64,000 nt of DNA from an uncultured Pseudomonadota bacterium (GTDB lineage: Bacteria; Oederibacteriota; Muellerivitia; Muellerivitales; Muellerivitaceae): NCBI GenBank assembly GCA_963843375.1, contig CAWJKT010000007.1, positions 1-64,000 on the forward strand, written 5' to 3'. Position numbers: made by a program. This document shows positions 1-15,000 of this stretch, piece after piece; within the stretch, counting starts at the first letter, position 1, and each line of letters starts with the position of its first letter.

Positions 1-3000
1 CCGGTTTTTCCACATCTTCCAGGGAATTTCGGGGAGTGTCACACTTTTCGACCGCCTTTTTGCCCTCTCTAGACCGTCACACTATTGGACCGGCGTTTAC
101 AGGTATTGGATCGTCTTAAAGGACCTTATCTCGTTGGATATCAAGTTCTGGTAGTCCATCCGGGTCACGACCGGGAATTCCATCAACAGAAGGTTGGTCA
201 GGTTGCTCAATACATCGCTGGCTTGGTCCCGGTAGTAGGGCTCCTGCTCCGGTTGGTAAAAGAGGGACTTCATCAGGCCGTTAAATATCTCGTCCGCTTT
301 TTCTTTGTAGTCGGGGTTATAGGACTGGCTTCTTTTGATGTCCGCAAGGTCGAGGTACTTGAGGTCGCCAAGCCTCCCGTACTTGGAGGCAAAGTAGGGT
401 AGCTGTTTATTAAAGTTCGACTTCGCGTCGAAGACAAACATTCCTAATCCATACCGGACGGATTGCTCGATGATCCAATTGAGGATATTGGTCTTCCCCA
501 TTCCCGAAGATCCAATGACCTCCAGGTGGTATTTGAGGAATTCGGTGGGGATGAAGTACTTCCCCGTCACGTCAAGGTAGATGGGATATTTACCCGTCTC
601 TTCTTTCGGAGATTCCTTGTGGAGATCGGAACTCTTCTTCAGCGTGACGAAAACAAAGTAGGAGCAAAGGCCGATAAAGAACGCCATAGCCAAACCCACA
701 TCGCCCACAAAACCTTCGGTCCCAATGAAGGTTCCAAAGAAGTCGTGGACTAAGGACGTCAGAATCAAGGACGGGGCCAAGGCAAGAATGGGATTTAACG
801 GGAAGTGTTTTTCAAGAAGGTAGGTAATCCCCAGCACCATAACCGAAAGCAGGTCGAAGGGATTAAAGGCTACTGCAATAACACCGGAGAGTTCGAGGCC
901 AAGCTTTATCGCGGCATAGGTAGCGAAACCTACAAGGACGGAGGGTAAATCTCTTTCGACTTGATCCAATAACCGAACGATATCCATACAACTGCCCCGC
1001 ATACGAAAAACAAAGGGTTGTTACACCCGATTCATAAAAACCAATAAATAGAACTACACTTTAAATAATTAAAACCTAAATATAAGCTATCTCAAAAAAT
1101 CAGCAAATAAAACTACTCGTTCAAAATATTTTTAAAATTACAACAAAAACAACAAAAATCAACTATTCGGAAGGCCAAAACCATTTTCACATTTCTACTA
1201 CGAGTTCGAAATTAAAGCAAAATCTCTTTTTATGTTTTTCCGCTTAACAAAAGGTGAAAGGACATCGGAGAGCAACTTTTTGCTTAACCCATCATGTTTA
1301 ATATTACGAATTATAGCTCGACACGTTAATTCTAAAAGTTTCGTTTGCTGAACTCGCTTTATCTGTTTACGATCAATTAAATCCGAGATAAAAGTTACTT
1401 TTTTATTTTTTCGTCCCAGTTGCTTTCTTAAATTAACGAGACGTTTTTCAATATGGGGATAATTTTTATTAACCTTATTAGTTTCCAAATCAGAGACTAA
1501 AAGATTCACTTTCCGGAAAGTGCTTTGAAAATGCTCATCGTCAACAAATATACCTCCTCTTAAAAAACGTTCAATTACAGCCAATGAGTGCTCTAAATCT
1601 TGATTTGCATATCTTGTAAATGAAGCAGATCTACAAGCTTTGCTCATTTGTTTACCTAGTACCGTCATTTGTTCCAGTAATTTTTCGTAATTTATCGACT
1701 CTTCAAATCCATCTCGCCTGGCATTGGGCCGCAAGGTATAATCCAAATGAAATGATCCAATGTGCCAAGCAGCGAATCTTCTCTCTGTAAAATAATCAGC
1801 CAAAAACTCCTCATTCCCAATTTCAATATTGCCCTGACGCACTGATACCCCTCTCATCAAAACAGCTTTGGGGAGTCCACCTAAAAAGCTCGTTCGAGCG
1901 ATCCACCCCTTACCAAAAACAGAACCGTCCGGGGCACGAAATTCAATTAGATCAACATTAGAAATTCGATCTTTCTTTTTGTCAGTTATCAGAAACTCGT
2001 CTTGATAAGCATTAAATAATTTTTTCCCATTAAGAAAAATGTTATGTGTGCAATAACCTGGAAAATTTTTTAAATGTTCATTAATTTTCGAAGACCAAGA
2101 AAATTTACCACTATCGAATGGGAGGGGCGCTACCCGTAAAAGATATTGAGTGATTACATCTATCGAAGTCAGTCTATCCGTATGAAACCGGCTTACGTTT
2201 AGCATGGTTACACGAAAAAAATGTTTCGGTTCTTTTTCCGATGCTTTTCGAAAAGATATCTGTGCAATCTTCGAAATTACTTCGGACAGGCTTTTGATTC
2301 CCTTTACTTCCATTGAATTCCGAAGCAAATTACCATTCCATTGAACAACACCAATATTTTTATCGCCTTTTGATCTGGTTTCGAAAATTAAAGTGTCACA
2401 ATAACTCAAACCACCAAGACGACCAATTCCTCGAAACCCGCGAAGTCCAGCACCTTCTTTATTACTTAACCCTAAGCCACCGAGCTTTTTCTCCAGTTCA
2501 CTATTTTGTACTCCCGCTCCATTATCCTCAATAATGAGCTTTCGATTTTTTCCATCCAGGAATATTTCTATTTTAGAATCGGAAAAAGTAATCAGGTCTT
2601 TTTCAATCCCCTCATCAATTGAATCTGAACTGTTCTGGATATACTCCCGCAATGCCATACACGGATCACTGTACATTCCAGCGGTAATTATTTCTAAAAG
2701 TTGCTTGCCGAAAGAAGAGGTGAGCGCTCGCGCTTTTCCCCCTTCACGAGATATAATTCGAGCCATTTTTTCATTTCCTTATCTGTACAATTTTCTAATG
2801 ATTTTCTAATCGTTTTAATACTATTCTCACACACCGCTTCATGGAAAAATCTGAACCGTTCCCCTTGTTCCTTTAATAACCCCGCAACAAATTCCCTAAA
2901 CTCTTCTATTTTCCCTGAGCCGGTTAAATTTTTCCTGCCGTTTGCATAAATCCTTTTTTCGTGTTTATTTCTATTTCGTAAAAGCTCTTCCGGCATATAT

Positions 3001-12000: not shown

Positions 12001-15000
12001 CTAAATGCATCGAGCGTGTATTTATATAGTCCCGTGGTTAATATCGGAAGTATTTCAGCCCCTATGTCTCTTTTCGAGAAATGCAATCTATCGGCCATTA
12101 TTTTTTCTCCAAAATTAATTTGATTGGCGATATCTACTAAAATACGTACGCTTGTTATGTCGATGAAGCTCCATAATAAACACAATCCTTGCCAAAACAA
12201 CAAAAACACAATGATTACCTTGGCTCCCAGCTTAAGATTTCCGACCTGTTTCCATATCGAACCTGAGAAAAGCGATTATCGAAAAAGAGTGCTGCACTTG
12301 ATGAATGTCAGAAACCAACCTATAATTCTGACATAAGGAGTTTAAACATGAGTCCAGTAATTCAAACCATACTCAAATCTTCCCAAACTCGGCCCGAGGG
12401 GAGTGTCTTATCGCCTAAGGAATTCTTGGGCCAGAATAGCCGCGCCTCTGTAGACCAGGCTTTTACCCGTTTGACCAAAGCGGGTAAATTGATCCGGGTT
12501 AGCCAGGGCGCTTATGTAGCACCGGTAGAAGGACGCTTTGGAACCCGGCCTCCGGCTCCCGAAACCGTCATTAAGTCTATGGCTGTAAGAAATGGCGAGG
12601 AAGTAGCCTCCAACGGGGCTGTTGCGGCAAACTCCCTTGGCTTAACCACCCAAGTCCCTGTCCAGGAAGTTTTTGTTACCACGGGGCGCAGTCGGACTTT
12701 ACGACTCGGAAAAAGAACAATCAAATTCAAACACGCGCCACGCTGGCAGTTGGCTTTGGGAAACCGCCCAGCAGGTATGGCTGTTCGAGCTTTAGCCTGG
12801 GTAGGCCCATCGCACGCCCCAGAAGCCCTTGTTAAAATTCGTCAAAAGCTTCCCAAGGAAGAATGGAAAGCAATGGTTGAATCGCGTGCTTTTTTCCCTG
12901 GATGGATCGCGAAATTACTTGGCGAAGCCGAACAACATACGGTAGGCAACGTTAGATAAAATAACTCTTTAGGGAATTTGTTGAAGGACCCCATTTATAC
13001 GTTCGTAAGCATCCCGAATCGTTCTTTCCCGTTGCACTTCATCATATTCACTAAGGAATTCAGCTACGGCTTTGGGACCCCTCGCGTCAATGGCTGAAAA
13101 GTTTTGCCTCAACTTTTCAACTCCCTCTTTTACCCCCGGATTCCCCATTTGCTTTTTAAACTGATGGGCCAATCCCAATCCTGATTGGTAGTTTTTAACA
13201 CAGAAATAAATATCGTACGCGTCTTTGGATTCGAATCGATCCATGAAACTGATGGCTTTCATTGAAATAAATGAAACCAGGGACGCCGCCAGGAATCTCA
13301 CCACTCCCTCGTGTCCATCCGGGAAAATGCCATTGGTTCTGATTTCCACCGGCTCCTCAAAGGCCAATTCGCACCCATGGACAGCTTGGGCCAAATCATC
13401 CTTGGAATGTGAATCTTCACCAGTTAGTAAATCCACCTGGATCTTATACTTCTTCCCATTCTTCTCAAGAATCCGGTGGAATATAAAAGGCTTATCATTA
13501 CTTTGTTTGTAGTTGTTTTGAATTAATATGGTTTCAATCATTGCCAAATCCGAGCTTTGAACAGTCTCACGATCAATCGCCAAATCAACGTCAGTCGTAC
13601 CAACATGCGGTACCTCAGCTGTTGGAAACATGACCCACGGAACCGATCCGCCAATCAAAACAATATGGTCATGGTAGACATTCAATATTTGCATGAGCTC
13701 AAGCATCACCGACCGCGCGGCCTCCACTTCCCCTTTTTCAAAATCTCTTTTCATTGCCATGTAGGTCTGATTACCTCTTCCAAAAGGGCTTCGGCGGCTT
13801 CTTTACCTCTGCCTTTGTTTCCGATCAGCTCTAAATATACCTGTATCGGCGAGGCAACAGGTATTCCATTAAAAAATTGAGCTCCATAAAAAACGCCTTC
13901 ATCGGCGGGTTTAATAAGGGTGAAATTAGCTCCACTATCCACTTCTTTTAAACCAAGTGCCGCTGCCACAAGATCAATGTCTTCGGCGTAAGCTGTTTCA
14001 CCGTTGTATCTGGTAAACGGGTAATAGAGTTCAGCACCCGTAAAGCTCGTCAGAGCATAGGTTTGATGCCGCCGATCATGGGCTTCCTGCAACAACCCTT
14101 CCATTTCATTCAGGCTTCTCATCGTATAGAAACCCCTGACGGCATCTTGATCTTTTTTATAATTCTGCGCCCACTCCATCAATAACGCTTCGGGCTTCAC
14201 CAAAGAAAGATTTGCGCGTTCCGACTTAATCCATTCCCTGTCTTGCAGATGTTTTTTTACATGGGCCACATGGGCCAAACTCACTTTTGCTTCATTCGCC
14301 AAATCCTGCATTTTCCAAAACTGTTTAGGATGAGTCAGTAGAACCCGAAGAACCCTTGCCGCCCTAGGCGTATAAAGGGTCATTAAAAAAGTACGGCGCC
14401 CAAAAGGATTTTTTTGGTTCCTGACTTTGAGGAAAAGACCGTCAAATTCCAAGCGGCAATTACCGGCCAAGTCCACCGTGCCGATTCCAGCTTCTTTGCA
14501 GATCAGATCAGCTTCATCGGAGACATAAGGGGCGAACATAACACCGTAGGCTTGGGGTTCGCGCGCCAAATAGTTTTTAAACCGTTCCACGGCAATCCTG
14601 GCTTCGCGGGGCTGGCCGTTGCCAAACACTTCCCCAAGCACACTGTATTTTCGTTTTCCATAAGTGAACGAAGCGGTTATATCCGCCTTTTGAGCGGTAT
14701 CTTTGTGGGCAATAATATGCAGATCGGGGATGGGCCCAGCTTGATTCAGGCAATTCTCTAGCGATCTCATTGCGTTTATCTGTAAATCACTATAGTTTTT
14801 CATTAATATAGGCTTTTTTAACATACGTTAAAAATATAACTATTACAAAAAATTGTCAATATATGCCTTAATTTATATGTCTATTTCTCAGCCGCAAGGC
14901 GTTTGTAATGACCGAGACCGAACTTAAGCTCATGGCCGCCGCCGCAATCATGGGGTTCAAGAGCCAGCCAAAGAAGGGGTATAGAAGACCCGCCGCCAAT

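Follow-up and report, generated by a model that had tools for sequence, protein, structure and literature searches.

Results

A nine-gene island of low GC content

Analysis of a 64,000-nucleotide stretch of DNA from an uncultured bacterium (the window) revealed nine co-directional minus-strand open reading frames that span positions 1198-12209 (Table 1). The GC content of this region is 0.345-0.408 across positions 1001-12000 versus 0.445-0.55 across positions 12001-24000 when measured in 1-kb windows, and AbiE genes adjoin the island. Queries with rSAM and ParB2 returned no match in G054, a genome of the same genus that is 99% complete and is alignable to the window only from approximately position 18,895 onward. 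The island is horizontally acquired. The survey's finding had described a co-directional, low-GC island of nine genes with named domains beside an AbiE module, and our analysis recovered its layout, its composition, its domain calls and the adjoining AbiE genes. The end coordinate given in that finding, 12098, corresponds to the ATG (Met38) of GHKL_B, which is likely the true start of this gene.

Table 1. Coordinates of the island genes within the window
Gene	Positions	Strand	Description
GHKL_A (g50)	1198..2766	-	GHKL ATPase, PF13589
rSAM (g51)	2694..4340	-	radical SAM enzyme; CxxxCxxC; B12-binding-like Rossmann domain
DGQHR/DndB-like (g52)	4321..5325	-	TIGR03187, DndB, DpdB
ParB1 (g53)	5386..6378	-	ParB/Srx-like; PDC-M38A, PD-Lambda-5_A, TIGR00180
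SNF2 (g54)	6379..7863	-	SNF2-rel_dom + Helicase_C
nuc136 (g55)	7866..8276	-	small protein with PD-(D/E)xK-type motif
ParB2 (g56)	8278..9300	-	ParB/Srx-like; PDC-M38A, PHROG ParB-like family
g57	9457..10485	-	PP_RS20740 family; class I SAM-methyltransferase fold in AF2 model
GHKL_B (g58)	10488..12209	-	GHKL ATPase, PF13589; likely start ATG 12098

A tightly coupled core triad

The constant element that is common to all variants of the island is the radical SAM enzyme rSAM, in which a CxxxCxxC radical SAM core is preceded by a B12-binding-like Rossmann domain at the N-terminus and followed by a helical domain at the C-terminus. The motif cysteines C191, C195 and C198, previously described as invariant, are indeed so in all 27 sequences compared, while the Pfam matches to Radical_SAM (1.2e-4) and B12-binding (1.1e-3) are both sub-threshold. 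Top Foldseek matches of the AF2 model (pLDDT 83.7) are AprD4, MgmA, TsrM and MiaB, the last three of which had already been noted, and VIA gave Z-scores of 18.3 for AprD4, 18.1 for OxsB, 17.1 for TsrM, 16.2 for MgmA and 15.5 for MiaB. Viperin-fold enzymes are weaker structural matches (Z 8-9) and spore photoproduct lyase (SPL) is absent from the top matches of both Foldseek and VIA. The structural relatives closest to rSAM have small molecules, peptides or tRNA as substrates, and in no case DNA. Cobalamin is only a possible cofactor of rSAM, as the best structural match, AprD4, is a cobalamin-free enzyme and the B12-binding score lies below the Pfam cut-off. The sub-threshold match behind the original B12-type assignment was reproduced. 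The enzyme also matches phrog_9298 (E 2.4e-39), and a profile search returned 1836 clusters defined at 50% identity (E<=1e-3). As had been claimed, it has more than 2,000 homologues: of 8000 that were scored, 2166 reach E<=1e-5. The top 120 are 54-100% identical, and none of these 120 is named beyond "hypothetical protein".

The DGQHR protein, a member of the ParB superfamily, retains its designation as DndB/DpdB-like, with matches to TIGR03187 (3.9e-40), PADLOC DpdB (3.2e-21) and Pfam DndB (1.1e-9; 38.2 bits with a cut-off of 29.1) as well as invariant residues D108, Q110, H111 and R112. Both GHKL ATPases, which the survey's finding called MORC-like, match PF13589 (2e-12 for GHKL_A and 6.4e-13 for GHKL_B), and the best PDB sequence matches are HtpG/TRAP1 N-domains. 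GHKL_A conserves E41/N45/D48, D81-N-G-x-G85 and a G110-G119 box in 44 sequences. In the island, catalytic motifs are intact.

Gene order was assessed in 81 metagenome loci chosen by rSAM, of which 65 remained after dereplication and 53 had at least 1.1 kb of upstream sequence. The DGQHR gene is immediately upstream of rSAM in 42 of these 53 loci, and in 6 of the remaining 11 its place is taken by ParB1, so that a DGQHR or ParB partner is present in 48/53. A GHKL gene immediately follows rSAM in 38 of 48 dereplicated loci, and the complete triad is found in 30 of the 42 dereplicated loci with both flanks. The median gap is -4 nt between DGQHR and rSAM (n=47) and -28 nt between rSAM and GHKL (n=46). 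In the window, the DGQHR gene shares its last 20 nt with the beginning of rSAM, and the longest GHKL_A reading frame overlaps the rSAM end. The core triad is therefore tightly coupled in the order DGQHR, rSAM, GHKL, and its genes are translationally coupled. There is also a natural fusion of a DGQHR domain to rSAM (P0241; hhalign E 3.7e-38) in which the DxQHR motif itself is missing. In 13 of 19 IMG/VR loci rSAM and GHKL are paired in reversed order with DGQHR lost. A two-gene rSAM-GHKL minimal core, as first proposed, was rejected in favor of the three-gene unit, as DGQHR is an equally constant partner of rSAM. The triad often occurs alone, with the long contigs L053, L061 and L075 showing no nuclease in view.

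The SNF2 accessory module

Upstream of the triad is a module with the fixed order ParB2, nuc136, SNF2 and ParB1. ParB2, the first of the four, weakly matches PDC-M38A (7.7e-7) and a PHROG ParB-like family (5e-5), with N22-P23-R24 and E90-G-N-T-R94 conserved in 14 sequences. The last gene, ParB1, is directly upstream of rSAM where DGQHR is missing; its matches to PDC-M38A (4.2e-10), PD-Lambda-5_A (1.2e-5), TIGR00180 (2.7e-3) and a PHROG ParB-like family are all weak, N34-P35-R36 and E91-G-N-S-R95 are conserved in 16 sequences, and its Rhizobium orthologue is annotated as a "ParB N-terminal domain-containing protein". The nuc136 gene is always located between ParB2 and SNF2, and its product gave no family match in profile searches; the PD-(D/E)xK motif attributed to this 136-aa protein is borne out by D33, P51-D52 and G66-E67-A68-K69, whose conservation across 13 sequences is 90% or higher. 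By its domains SNF2 is a minimal SNF2-family translocase (SNF2-rel_dom 1.5e-29, Helicase_C 1.8e-18, ZorD 1.9e-45, DpdE 3.6e-36), with full-length matches of 59-64% identity in metagenome loci and 53% on a Rhizobium plasmid. These matches, together with the weak PDC-M38A ones, reproduce the earlier description of one SNF2 and two ParB-like proteins.

The SNF2 module adjoins the triad in 22 of the 81 loci, a set that was selected by rSAM and is therefore unable to show this module standing alone. Searches that used ParB2 found it in 7 plasmid records, in 1 of 99 own-phylum genomes (G000) and, within a sample of 401 Elusimicrobiota genomes, in 2. The SNF2 module is beside a member of the rSAM family in 7/7 of these plasmid records and in 3/3 genomes (500 searched), counts that are small and non-independent, as the genome part comprises three genomes and every plasmid record is alphaproteobacterial (6 Hyphomicrobiales, 1 Roseomonas), with two of the seven being duplicates from one strain. 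For example, ParB2 lies beside a full-length rSAM in G099, and in G150 it directly follows a same-family 366-aa rSAM with DGQHR and GHKL missing.

Other modules are also found near the triad. PbeA (1.9e-223) and PbeC (3.2e-128) are present in 8/81 loci, making PbeABCD an alternative module, and a BrxD, PLD and HerA/mad8 set is present in 5/81. A long DGQHR-HEPN protein occurs in 11/81 loci, a TM protein with DGQHR458 but without GHKL occurs in 10/81, and a PIN and GHKL pair is another swappable module. Additional variants carry HerA plus a partner of ~370 aa, or HEPN, MBL or PIN effectors, and an SPL-like radical SAM gene closely follows the triad in L021, L022 and L024. A quick rSAM tree implies at least 31 changes of accessory module, and L016, L018 and L025, with rSAMs that are at least 90% identical, have three different modules. 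Accessory modules are thus swappable around a constant rSAM unit. Island neighbours across loci include AbiE (here and in G150), Type I R-M and TIR (an operon and a gene, respectively, in G106), Fic, Pbe and BrxD. The adjacency of Pbe, BrxD and other modules could be ordinary clustering within defence islands.

Distribution on plasmids and in phages

The R. leguminosarum WSM1325 conjugative plasmid pR132505 carries all seven core genes in the same order and orientation at 29-53% identity (ParB2 46%, nuc136 29%, SNF2 53%, ParB1 49%, DGQHR 49%, rSAM 34%, GHKL 32%), and the triad is present on N. aromaticivorans pNL1. In a set of 72,556 plasmids, a near-full-length rSAM and an orthologous DGQHR occur in exactly the same 12 records, and the 7 records with ParB2 all fall within them. 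The seven-gene unit is thus conserved across phyla and plasmids. Within its own phylum the spread is patchy, with rSAM found in 2/99 genomes. Phages carry solo rSAM homologues (phrog_9298) within their modules for DNA replication and recombination, with neighbours that consist of a DNA polymerase, a UvsX-like recombinase and SbcCD in one set, a RecE-like exonuclease in another, and HerA with a Rad50/Mre11-associated exonuclease in a third. This pattern looks like that of captured orphan modification enzymes.

A separate GHKL_B-g57 arm

GHKL_B and g57, in this order, make up a two-gene arm. GHKL_B has weak matches to TmtA, MzaB and MutL and is a paralogue of GHKL_A (24% identity over 382 aa, E 1e-14). 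The g57 protein, which had been left without an assignment, belongs to PF28273 PP_RS20740 (Atlas) and has a class I SAM-methyltransferase fold in its AF2 model (pLDDT 86.2); the Foldseek matches listed are SAM methyltransferases or proteins of that fold (AerE, Trm1, PsiM and others; E ~1e-6, TM 0.3-0.5). It has 217 homologues, and GLPG38-41, E61 and N119/D121/F122/C123 are invariant in 22 sequences. A gap of 156 bp separates g57 from ParB2, and both g57 and GHKL_B are missing from all 81 close loci. The link of this pair to rSAM is seen in the present window and in G106, where a GHKL_B orthologue (35% identity) is immediately followed by a g57-like gene and a short rSAM, all in one operon. GHKL_B and g57 are a separate arm outside of the seven-gene unit.

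Discussion

Our favored interpretation, to which we assign a probability of roughly 0.45, is that of a Dpd/Dnd-like modification-restriction system in which rSAM would be the marking enzyme. The logic shared with Dpd, Dnd and Pbe is modification plus restriction, here read from the genes. Profile searches detected no conventional DNA methyltransferase among proteins of the seven-gene unit, and rSAM is therefore the only candidate marking enzyme; that its substrate is DNA we infer from its partners alone. Two DNA-handling NTPases would load or position rSAM on DNA, and the enzyme would then mark DNA of the host covalently via a 5'-deoxyadenosyl radical and perhaps a methyl group carried on cobalamin. 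The ParB2-nuc136-SNF2-ParB1 module would serve as a restriction arm that translocates on and cuts unmarked DNA, and GHKL_B with g57 may provide a parallel arm that ties a paralogous ATPase to a second SAM-using enzyme. We likewise infer the covalent mark, the discrimination between self and non-self, and an anti-phage or anti-plasmid activity. Modification plus restriction fits because the rSAM unit is often alone, while the SNF2 unit is always beside rSAM where found. SNF2-and-nuclease defence systems without modification do exist, such as Zorya ZorD, and the accessory module therefore need not read a mark. Regarding the marking and restricting system originally put forward, the constant rSAM unit, the separable SNF2 unit and the solo phage rSAMs speak for it; its DNA modification and cobalamin use are putative, and its two-gene core does not hold.

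It is rather improbable that, upon infection sensed by GHKL or ParB-like NTPases, rSAM instead makes an antiviral nucleotide or other small molecule as viperin does, or changes the nucleotide pool, with SNF2 and the nuclease as an independent second layer. The viperin-fold matches point in this direction, as do the non-DNA substrates of all solved rSAM relatives, the rSAM-GHKL pairing that survives reordering and DGQHR loss in the IMG/VR loci, and a proposal in a passage of PMC10853773 that ParB/Srx proteins act on nucleotides. However, the most constant partners of rSAM (DGQHR/ParB, 48/53 loci) are DNA-binding families, a DGQHR domain is even fused to it in P0241, the examined loci show neither a nucleotide kinase nor a transporter as partner, the SNF2 module is beside rSAM in all cases found, and solo enzymes in phage replication modules are hard to square with an anti-phage metabolite. 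We also doubt that rSAM is itself a weapon that ParB-like proteins and GHKL ATPases load on foreign DNA, where radical damage or cross-links would be finished by nucleases. The triad is often without a nuclease and may therefore suffice as a system, and the variants with HerA, HEPN, MBL or PIN effectors agree with such a role, but a DNA-damaging solo enzyme beside a phage's own polymerase and recombinase would be self-harm, and an SNF2/nuclease module that is always beside rSAM fits a marker and not a second weapon.

The triad, the ParB-nuclease-SNF2-ParB module and the GHKL_B-g57 pair might alternatively be three unrelated mobile systems that are chance neighbours and functionally independent. 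The clustering of defence genes is known, and the frequent switching of accessory modules, the absence of g57 and GHKL_B from close loci and the 156-bp gap all suit this explanation. It is nevertheless unlikely given the order and orientation kept on the Rhizobium plasmid, the ParB2 orthologues beside rSAM in every plasmid record and genome, the different short rSAM that occupies the equivalent position ahead of the module in G150, and the operon that joins GHKL_B-like, g57-like and short rSAM genes in G106. A very unlikely role is that of a DNA-repair or maintenance cassette of mobile elements, in which rSAM would reverse a lesion like SPL with the aid of a MutL-like GHKL protein, SNF2 and nuclease. 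Phage rSAMs among recombination and repair genes, the SPL-like genes below the triad and the weak MutL matches of GHKL_B would accord with repair; the patchy spread does not, nor does the conflict-system signature of low GC, conjugative plasmids and AbiE, Type I R-M, TIR, Fic, Pbe and BrxD neighbours, and SPL is not among the top structural matches.

A full-text literature search found no published description of the island, in agreement with its being regarded as an undescribed system. Our results support a real, conserved and widely transferred system of defence-island and plasmid settings, which probably marks or polices DNA by an as yet undescribed route.

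Layout of the island and its flanks

The island comprises nine co-directional ORFs on the minus strand, spanning window positions 1198-12209, and its GC content in 1-kb steps is 0.345-0.408 vs 0.445-0.55 on the right side. Scans with Pfam, PADLOC and NCBIfam gave the same domain calls for the island proteins as the survey's finding. The start of GHKL_B, the GHKL ATPase gene at the right end of the island, is probably an internal ATG, since homologue alignments begin only at about residue 42-50 of the longest ORF. A promoter and terminator scan returned fewer promoter-like sites than in shuffled sequence and somewhat more terminator-like sites (14 vs 8.8, sd 2.4, in shuffles), neither of which informs the interpretation.

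Several genes flank the island. Near the contig start there is a 301-aa ORF with a P-loop and hydrophobic N-terminal stretches that resemble membrane helices. This ORF weakly matches HerA/DUF87 (8.1e-5) and VirD4/TraD-type coupling proteins, and because it is much shorter than members of those families it may be a relic of a conjugative element bordering the island on the left. To the right are two AbiE-type units, a solo AbiEi/DUF6088 gene and an AbiEi_2-AbiEii pair, and a heavy-metal P-type ATPase gene. A same-genus genome that is 99% complete (G054) aligns only from about window position 18,895 onwards, at 76% identity, so the strain-specific stretch, to which the P-type ATPase belongs, measures 18.8 kb or more. 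The sole tRNA gene within the first 30 kb is a tRNA-Leu(CAA).

Features of the island, its flanks and related fetched loci (L-numbers); positions are those of the window unless a locus is named
Feature	Position	Strand	Assignment
301-aa ORF	97-1002	-	P-loop protein
GHKL_A (g50)	1198-2766	-	PF13589 2e-12
rSAM (g51)	2694-4340	-	Radical_SAM 1.2e-4, B12-binding 1.1e-3, both sub-threshold
DGQHR (g52)	4321-5325	-	TIGR03187 3.9e-40; Pfam DndB above cut-off; PADLOC DpdB 3.2e-21
ParB1 (g53)	5386-6378	-	weak ParB-type matches
SNF2 (g54)	6379-7863	-	SNF2-rel_dom 1.5e-29, ZorD 1.9e-45, DpdE 3.6e-36
nuc136 (g55)	7866-8276	-	without family match
ParB2 (g56)	8278-9300	-	weak ParB-type matches
g57	9457-10485	-	methyltransferase fold
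GHKL_B (g58)	10488-12209	-	PF13589 6.4e-13; likely start ATG at 12098
Two AbiE-type units	12348-14824
Solo AbiEi/DUF6088		+	PADLOC AbiEi 8.5e-63
AbiEii	12969-13760	-	pair with AbiEi_2
AbiEi_2	13751-14824	-	pair with AbiEii
P-type ATPase	14868-17345	-	heavy-metal type, YHS and HMBD domains
tRNA-Leu(CAA)	25478-25564	-	tRNA
Spore-photoproduct-lyase-like rSAM	L021 9535-10509		PF20903 1.9e-18
SNF2 in two pieces	L064 3949-7864		accessory SNF2
PIN-like/GHKL pair, Novosphingobium plasmid	L084 4042-7595
PIN-like/GHKL pair, Rhizobium plasmid	L085 12170-15686
Type I R-M with TIR gene, genome G106	L107 11732-19838

A core triad joined to differing modules

Gene order around the radical SAM gene (rSAM) was compared in 81 loci, namely 80 metagenome loci and one Elusimicrobia MAG, by mapping the window proteins with tblastn and clustering all ORFs; once loci whose rSAMs share 90% identity or more are merged, 65 remain. 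A DGQHR gene is located directly upstream of rSAM on the same strand in 42 of the 53 loci whose upstream sequence extends for 1.1 kb or more, and in six of the other 11 (L014, L017, L029, L030, L055 and L057) ParB1 is found there instead. Directly downstream of rSAM, a GHKL gene is present in 38 of 48 loci. Among the 42 loci in which both flanks are available, 30 contain the DGQHR-rSAM-GHKL triad, six only the DGQHR gene, four only the GHKL gene and two neither. Median gaps are -4 nt between DGQHR and rSAM and -28 nt between rSAM and GHKL.

The accessory modules that adjoin the triad differ among the 81 loci. The ParB2-nuc136-SNF2-ParB1 module of the window is present in 22 of them with its internal order fixed, and can have the same orientation as in the window, be inverted (L001, L020/L058, L076) or be located downstream (L056). 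A full set of PbeA (1.9e-223) and PbeC (3.2e-128), accompanied by two small genes, occurs directly upstream of the triad in eight loci, and two BrxD-like ATPases with a PLD nuclease and a HerA/mad8-like ATPase occur in five. A 770-aa DGQHR-HEPN protein is found in 11 loci, sometimes together with a second DGQHR protein and a metallo-beta-lactamase-fold protein, and a TM protein with a 458-aa DGQHR protein in 10 loci that have no GHKL gene. Nothing recognisable adjoins the remaining 25, many of which are short contigs. At least 31 changes of module label are required on a maximum-likelihood tree built quickly from 80 rSAMs. For example, the rSAMs of L016, L018 and L025 are at least 90% identical, yet these loci have three different modules.

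Additional genes were observed at individual loci. A second radical SAM gene, spore-photoproduct-lyase-like, follows the triad at a distance of about 1-2 kb in the three related loci L021, L022 and L024, with an unassigned 194-aa gene lying between the two in L021 and L022. In L064 the accessory SNF2 gene is present as two pieces (residues 1-170 and 165-487) about 2.4 kb apart, and the DNA between them contains two ORFs (253 and 494 aa) on the opposite strand, which looks like an insertion into the gene.

The radical SAM enzyme

Membership of g51 in the radical SAM superfamily is indicated by an invariant CxxxCxxC motif and by barrel matches with Z up to 18 to solved radical SAM enzymes. The three cysteines (C191, C195 and C198) do not vary among 27 close homologues, nor in a nine-sequence distant alignment that includes plasmid, provirus and phage members. 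The predicted AF2 structure (pLDDT 83.7, pTM 0.81) consists of a Rossmann-like N-domain followed by the CxxxCxxC barrel and a C-terminal helical domain. Foldseek ranks its matches as AprD4 and MgmA (1.3e-9), TsrM (3e-9), MiaB (6e-8), OxsB, CysS and TokK, while the Z values from VIA-align are 18.3 for AprD4, 18.1 for OxsB, 17.1 for TsrM, 16.2 for MgmA and 15.5 for MiaB. TsrM, OxsB, MgmA and AprD4 share both the N-domain and the barrel with g51 (Z 16-18 over 320-385 residues, Foldseek E about 1e-9). However, their identity to g51 is only 13-17%, and g51 remains below both Pfam cut-offs, with 22.7 bits vs 29.5 for Radical_SAM and 19.3 vs 32.1 for B12-binding (PF02310). The family also differs from these enzymes in its C-terminal helical domain and in its own invariant motifs DFNQG, FD and PM(R/K)Y, which are kept in the distant alignment.

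The survey's finding had called this protein a B12-type radical SAM enzyme. Judged from the structural model, the two-domain "B12-type" architecture is real, but g51 need not use cobalamin or methylate its substrate, because the top match, AprD4, carries the same N-domain, is named as a 1,2-diol dehydratase and not as a methylase in the title of its structure entry, and is not known to use cobalamin. We also considered the N-domain as a MiaB-type auxiliary-cluster domain and rejected this reading: the aligned sequences have no conserved Cys triad there, so a second cluster of this type is unlikely.

The rSAM family is large and unnamed. Among 8000 scored proteins 2166 are homologues at E<=1e-5, and the best 120 of these, which are 54-100% identical, have "hypothetical protein" as their sole name. 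A profile search recovered 1836, 1011 and 290 clusters at 50% identity with E thresholds of 1e-3, 1e-10 and 1e-30, respectively. The enzyme matches phrog_9298, "radical SAM domain protein" (2.4e-39), and faintly the PhpK family (E 0.0049). Pfam detected no domain in the C-terminal extensions of homologues of 680-820 aa, and one long homologue (P0261) has no similarity to GHKL_A; a GHKL fusion was not found.

Partner proteins of the radical SAM enzyme

The protein encoded upstream, g52, contains the general DGQHR domain (TIGR03187, 138.4 bits vs 58.85) and the Pfam DndB domain (PF14072, 38.2 bits vs a cut-off of 29.1), with the motif residues D108, Q110, H111 and R112 conserved among orthologues. 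It is well below the DpdB equivalog NF041060 (74.8 bits vs a cut-off of 300), and a profile of it found no PDB relative by sequence. In a 791-aa database protein (P0241) a DGQHR-family domain is fused to rSAM (hhalign 99.95%, E 3.7e-38). Since the DxQHR motif itself is missing from this alignment, the ParB-like part of the fusion may have lost its catalytic activity.

Both GHKL proteins are assigned to the GHKL (Bergerat-fold) ATPases by PF13589 (47.7 and 49.4 bits vs a cut-off of 25). An alignment of 44 sequences shows conservation of the N, G1 and G2 boxes of GHKL_A (E41/N45/D48, D81-N-G-x-G85 and G110-G119). By sequence comparison the two proteins are paralogues (24% identity over 382 aa, E 1e-14). 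Known proteins match only the N-terminal ATPase part of either, and the best PDB sequence matches are the N-domains of HtpG/TRAP1.

The similarity of the SNF2 protein g54 to ZorD in PADLOC is limited to the common helicase part; it scores 90.2 bits vs a cut-off of 1500 for the ZorD equivalog NF041790, and PADLOC found no ZorA, ZorB or ZorC among the island proteins. ParB-type matches of g53 and g56 are all weak (TIGR00180 17.5 bits vs 58.45; PDC-M38A 4e-10 and 8e-7; PHROG ParB-like families about 5e-6 and 5e-5). Their orthologues conserve NPR and EGN(S/T)R motifs, which we take to be ParB boxes, and a Rhizobium orthologue is annotated as a ParB N-terminal domain. Pfam, PADLOC, NCBIfam and PHROG scans gave no family match for nuc136; D52, E67 and K69, a candidate PD-(D/E)xK motif, reach at least 90% conservation across 13 sequences.

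The second arm, g57 and GHKL_B

Previously regarded as unknown, g57 has a SAM-methyltransferase fold in its AF2 model (pLDDT 86.2), and the Foldseek matches listed for this model, including AerE, Trm1 and PsiM, are SAM methyltransferases or methyltransferase-fold proteins. GLPG38-41, E61 and N119/D121/F122/C123 do not vary among 22 sequences; by its Rossmann-like fold, the GLPG stretch and the acidic E61 the protein belongs with the class I SAM-dependent methyltransferases and is predicted to bind SAM. In the Atlas the protein belongs to PF28273 PP_RS20740.

This arm has a distribution of its own. By tblastn, neither g57 nor GHKL_B is present in any of the 81 loci of close rSAM homologues. A search of 72,556 plasmids for g57 was negative, and none of its loci in IMG/VR could be confirmed. 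A g57 profile matched one of 401 Elusimicrobiota genomes (G106), where a GHKL_B-like gene (35%), a g57-like gene (26%) and a gene for a 384-aa rSAM (B12-binding 1.2e-5, Radical_SAM 2.1e-5) form one run. Downstream of this run is a Type I R-M operon in which a TIR-domain gene lies between hsdM and hsdS and an unassigned 564-aa gene precedes hsdR. On Novosphingobium and Rhizobium plasmids the triad is adjoined by genes for a PIN-like protein and a GHKL paralogue that is 24-30% identical to both window GHKLs. The pair has no PADLOC match and seems to stand in for g57 and GHKL_B of the window, at the corresponding place.

Occurrence in plasmids, genomes and phages

The rSAM gene was found in 17 plasmid records, 12 of them at 77% coverage or more with 33-34% identity; several records are duplicates or derive from the same strain, so the independent number is smaller. 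An orthologous DGQHR gene is present in exactly these 12 records, one further match being a distant DpdB, and all seven records with ParB2 are among the 12. N. aromaticivorans pNL1 carries the triad with a 769-aa DGQHR protein and the PIN-like/GHKL pair. On pR132505 of R. leguminosarum WSM1325 all seven genes of the triad and SNF2 module are present in window order (identities ParB2 46, nuc 29, SNF2 53, ParB1 49, DGQHR 49, rSAM 34 and GHKL 32%), along with an adjacent pair of a B-like GHKL (24%) and a PIN-like protein.

Within the phylum of the window, rSAM occurs in two of 99 genomes and ParB2 in one, and rSAM was not found in G054. ParB2 also occurs in two of 401 sampled Elusimicrobiota. The first, G099, is the genome of L001 and has a full-length rSAM. 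In the second, G150, a 366-aa rSAM of the same family directly precedes ParB2-nuc-SNF2-ParB1 without a DGQHR or GHKL gene. This short rSAM, which is 24% identical to the window enzyme and matches phrog_9298 (7.4e-57), was missed by the protein query at E<=1e-10 and seen only with tblastn on the locus. AbiEii and Fic genes neighbour the module, so that an AbiEii gene adjoins the SNF2 module in this genome too.

IMG/VR yielded 19 rSAM loci. One (L086) has the full system, and 13 encode an unassigned 370-aa protein, a HerA-like ATPase, a GHKL protein and rSAM, with the GHKL gene upstream. L088 combines a long DGQHR gene, rSAM and an integrase. Three loci are plainly phage and have a solo rSAM, which adjoins a DNA polymerase, a UvsX-like recombinase and SbcCD in L091 and a RecE-like exonuclease in L092, and is near a Holliday-junction resolvase and terminase in L087. 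Homologues are also present in 12 deposited phage genomes. For example, that of Marinitoga camini virus 1 adjoins HerA and an exonuclease annotated as Rad50/Mre11-associated.

Discussion

The constant element in these loci is the radical SAM enzyme, and its constant company is DNA-handling NTPases of the ParB-superfamily, GHKL and HerA types. It is quite probable that they represent a real, previously undescribed DNA-directed conflict system centred on this enzyme. For its mode of action we favour modification and restriction of the Dpd, Dnd or Pbe kind, with a probability of roughly 0.45.

Each of these known systems shares part of its organization with the island. Like the island, Dpd combines a DGQHR-domain ParB-superfamily protein with a DNA-modifying enzyme (a candidate one here), has SNF2-like helicases and nucleases as restriction arm (again a candidate here) and is spread on genomic islands; the PADLOC scores of g52 against DpdB and g54 against DpdE reflect this likeness. 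DpdB drives preQ0 insertion by DpdA according to PMC12839542. However, Pfam, PADLOC and NCBIfam found neither DpdA, a TGT-like transglycosylase, nor DpdC among the nine island proteins, g54 scores 26.9 vs the NCBIfam DpdE cut-off of 500, and the role of candidate modifier falls here to a radical SAM protein partnered by a GHKL ATPase, whereas Dpd has no GHKL protein. With Dnd and Pbe the island shares a DndB relative and a (candidate) modification module that is ATPase-assisted and joined to exchangeable restriction modules. In PMC10853773, Dnd modification genes of Pbe systems occupy the place taken by the triad in the eight loci with PbeA and PbeC. DndA, DndC, DndD and DndE are absent from the island proteins in the same three scans, with only the DndB-family domain present; moreover, the ATPase here is GHKL and not of ABC/SMC type, and the chemistry would be radical-SAM based instead of sulphur insertion by a PP-loop enzyme. 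In 2008 Iyer, Abhiman and Aravind described GHKL ATPases of the MORC/paraMORC type, encoded in mobile operons together with SF2/SNF2 helicases, nucleases of the restriction fold and enzymes that modify DNA, and proposed them as DNA loopers or remodellers (PMC2292703). The island likewise has mobile GHKL ATPases with SNF2, a candidate nuclease and a candidate DNA modifier, but the modifiers in those operons are conventional cytosine or adenine methylases, and the word "radical" is absent from that paper. No description of a DGQHR-rSAM-GHKL system was found in the full-text literature searched, which includes passages of this 2008 paper, a 2013 defence-systems review, a 2024 Dnd reappraisal and a 2026 BREX survey; subscription-journal papers and bioRxiv supplements are outside that scope.

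Four other explanations have been weakened but keep some probability. The enzyme could make an antiviral metabolite in the manner of viperins, and the solved B12-type relatives TsrM, OxsB, MgmA and AprD4 all work on small molecules or peptides. To our knowledge, prokaryotic viperins (pVips) are the one established radical SAM enzyme in anti-phage defence. Viperins are single-domain enzymes that make chain-terminating nucleotides and are paired with nucleotide kinases. They match g51 at Z 8-9 only, on the common barrel, and are without DGQHR, GHKL or ParB partners. Alternatively, the enzyme could damage foreign DNA, the genes could constitute a repair cassette, or the island could be a stack of unrelated systems. 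Modification and restriction fits better than these rivals because the triad often stands alone, because every copy of the SNF2/nuclease module found adjoins a member of the rSAM family, because the seven-gene unit contains no other candidate marking enzyme and because bare rSAM copies are located in phage DNA-metabolism modules.

A more specific version of modification and restriction, which we regard as rather unlikely in its entirety, is that this phrog_9298-like family would be the first radical SAM enzyme to write a covalent self-mark on genomic DNA. It would be loaded by the DGQHR and GHKL ATPases, its mark would be read by swappable restriction modules, and phages would have taken up the enzyme alone for use in counter-defence. 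The mark might be C-methylation of an unactivated carbon; in view of the faint PhpK-family match, P-methylation of the backbone is another candidate.

The system is directly testable, as it is carried on plasmids of two harmless bacteria in culture, R. leguminosarum WSM1325 and N. aromaticivorans DSM 12444. Its modular build, with one constant triad alongside PbeABCD, BrxD/HerA, SNF2/nuclease or HEPN modules, is a natural experiment in the assembly of defence systems. DNA self-marks so far form a short list of base methylation, phosphorothioate and 7-deazaguanine. If marking by this enzyme is true, radical SAM chemistry, possibly with cobalamin, would be new among the self/non-self DNA marks of bacteria, and a function would be provided for a large unnamed enzyme family, its phage members included.
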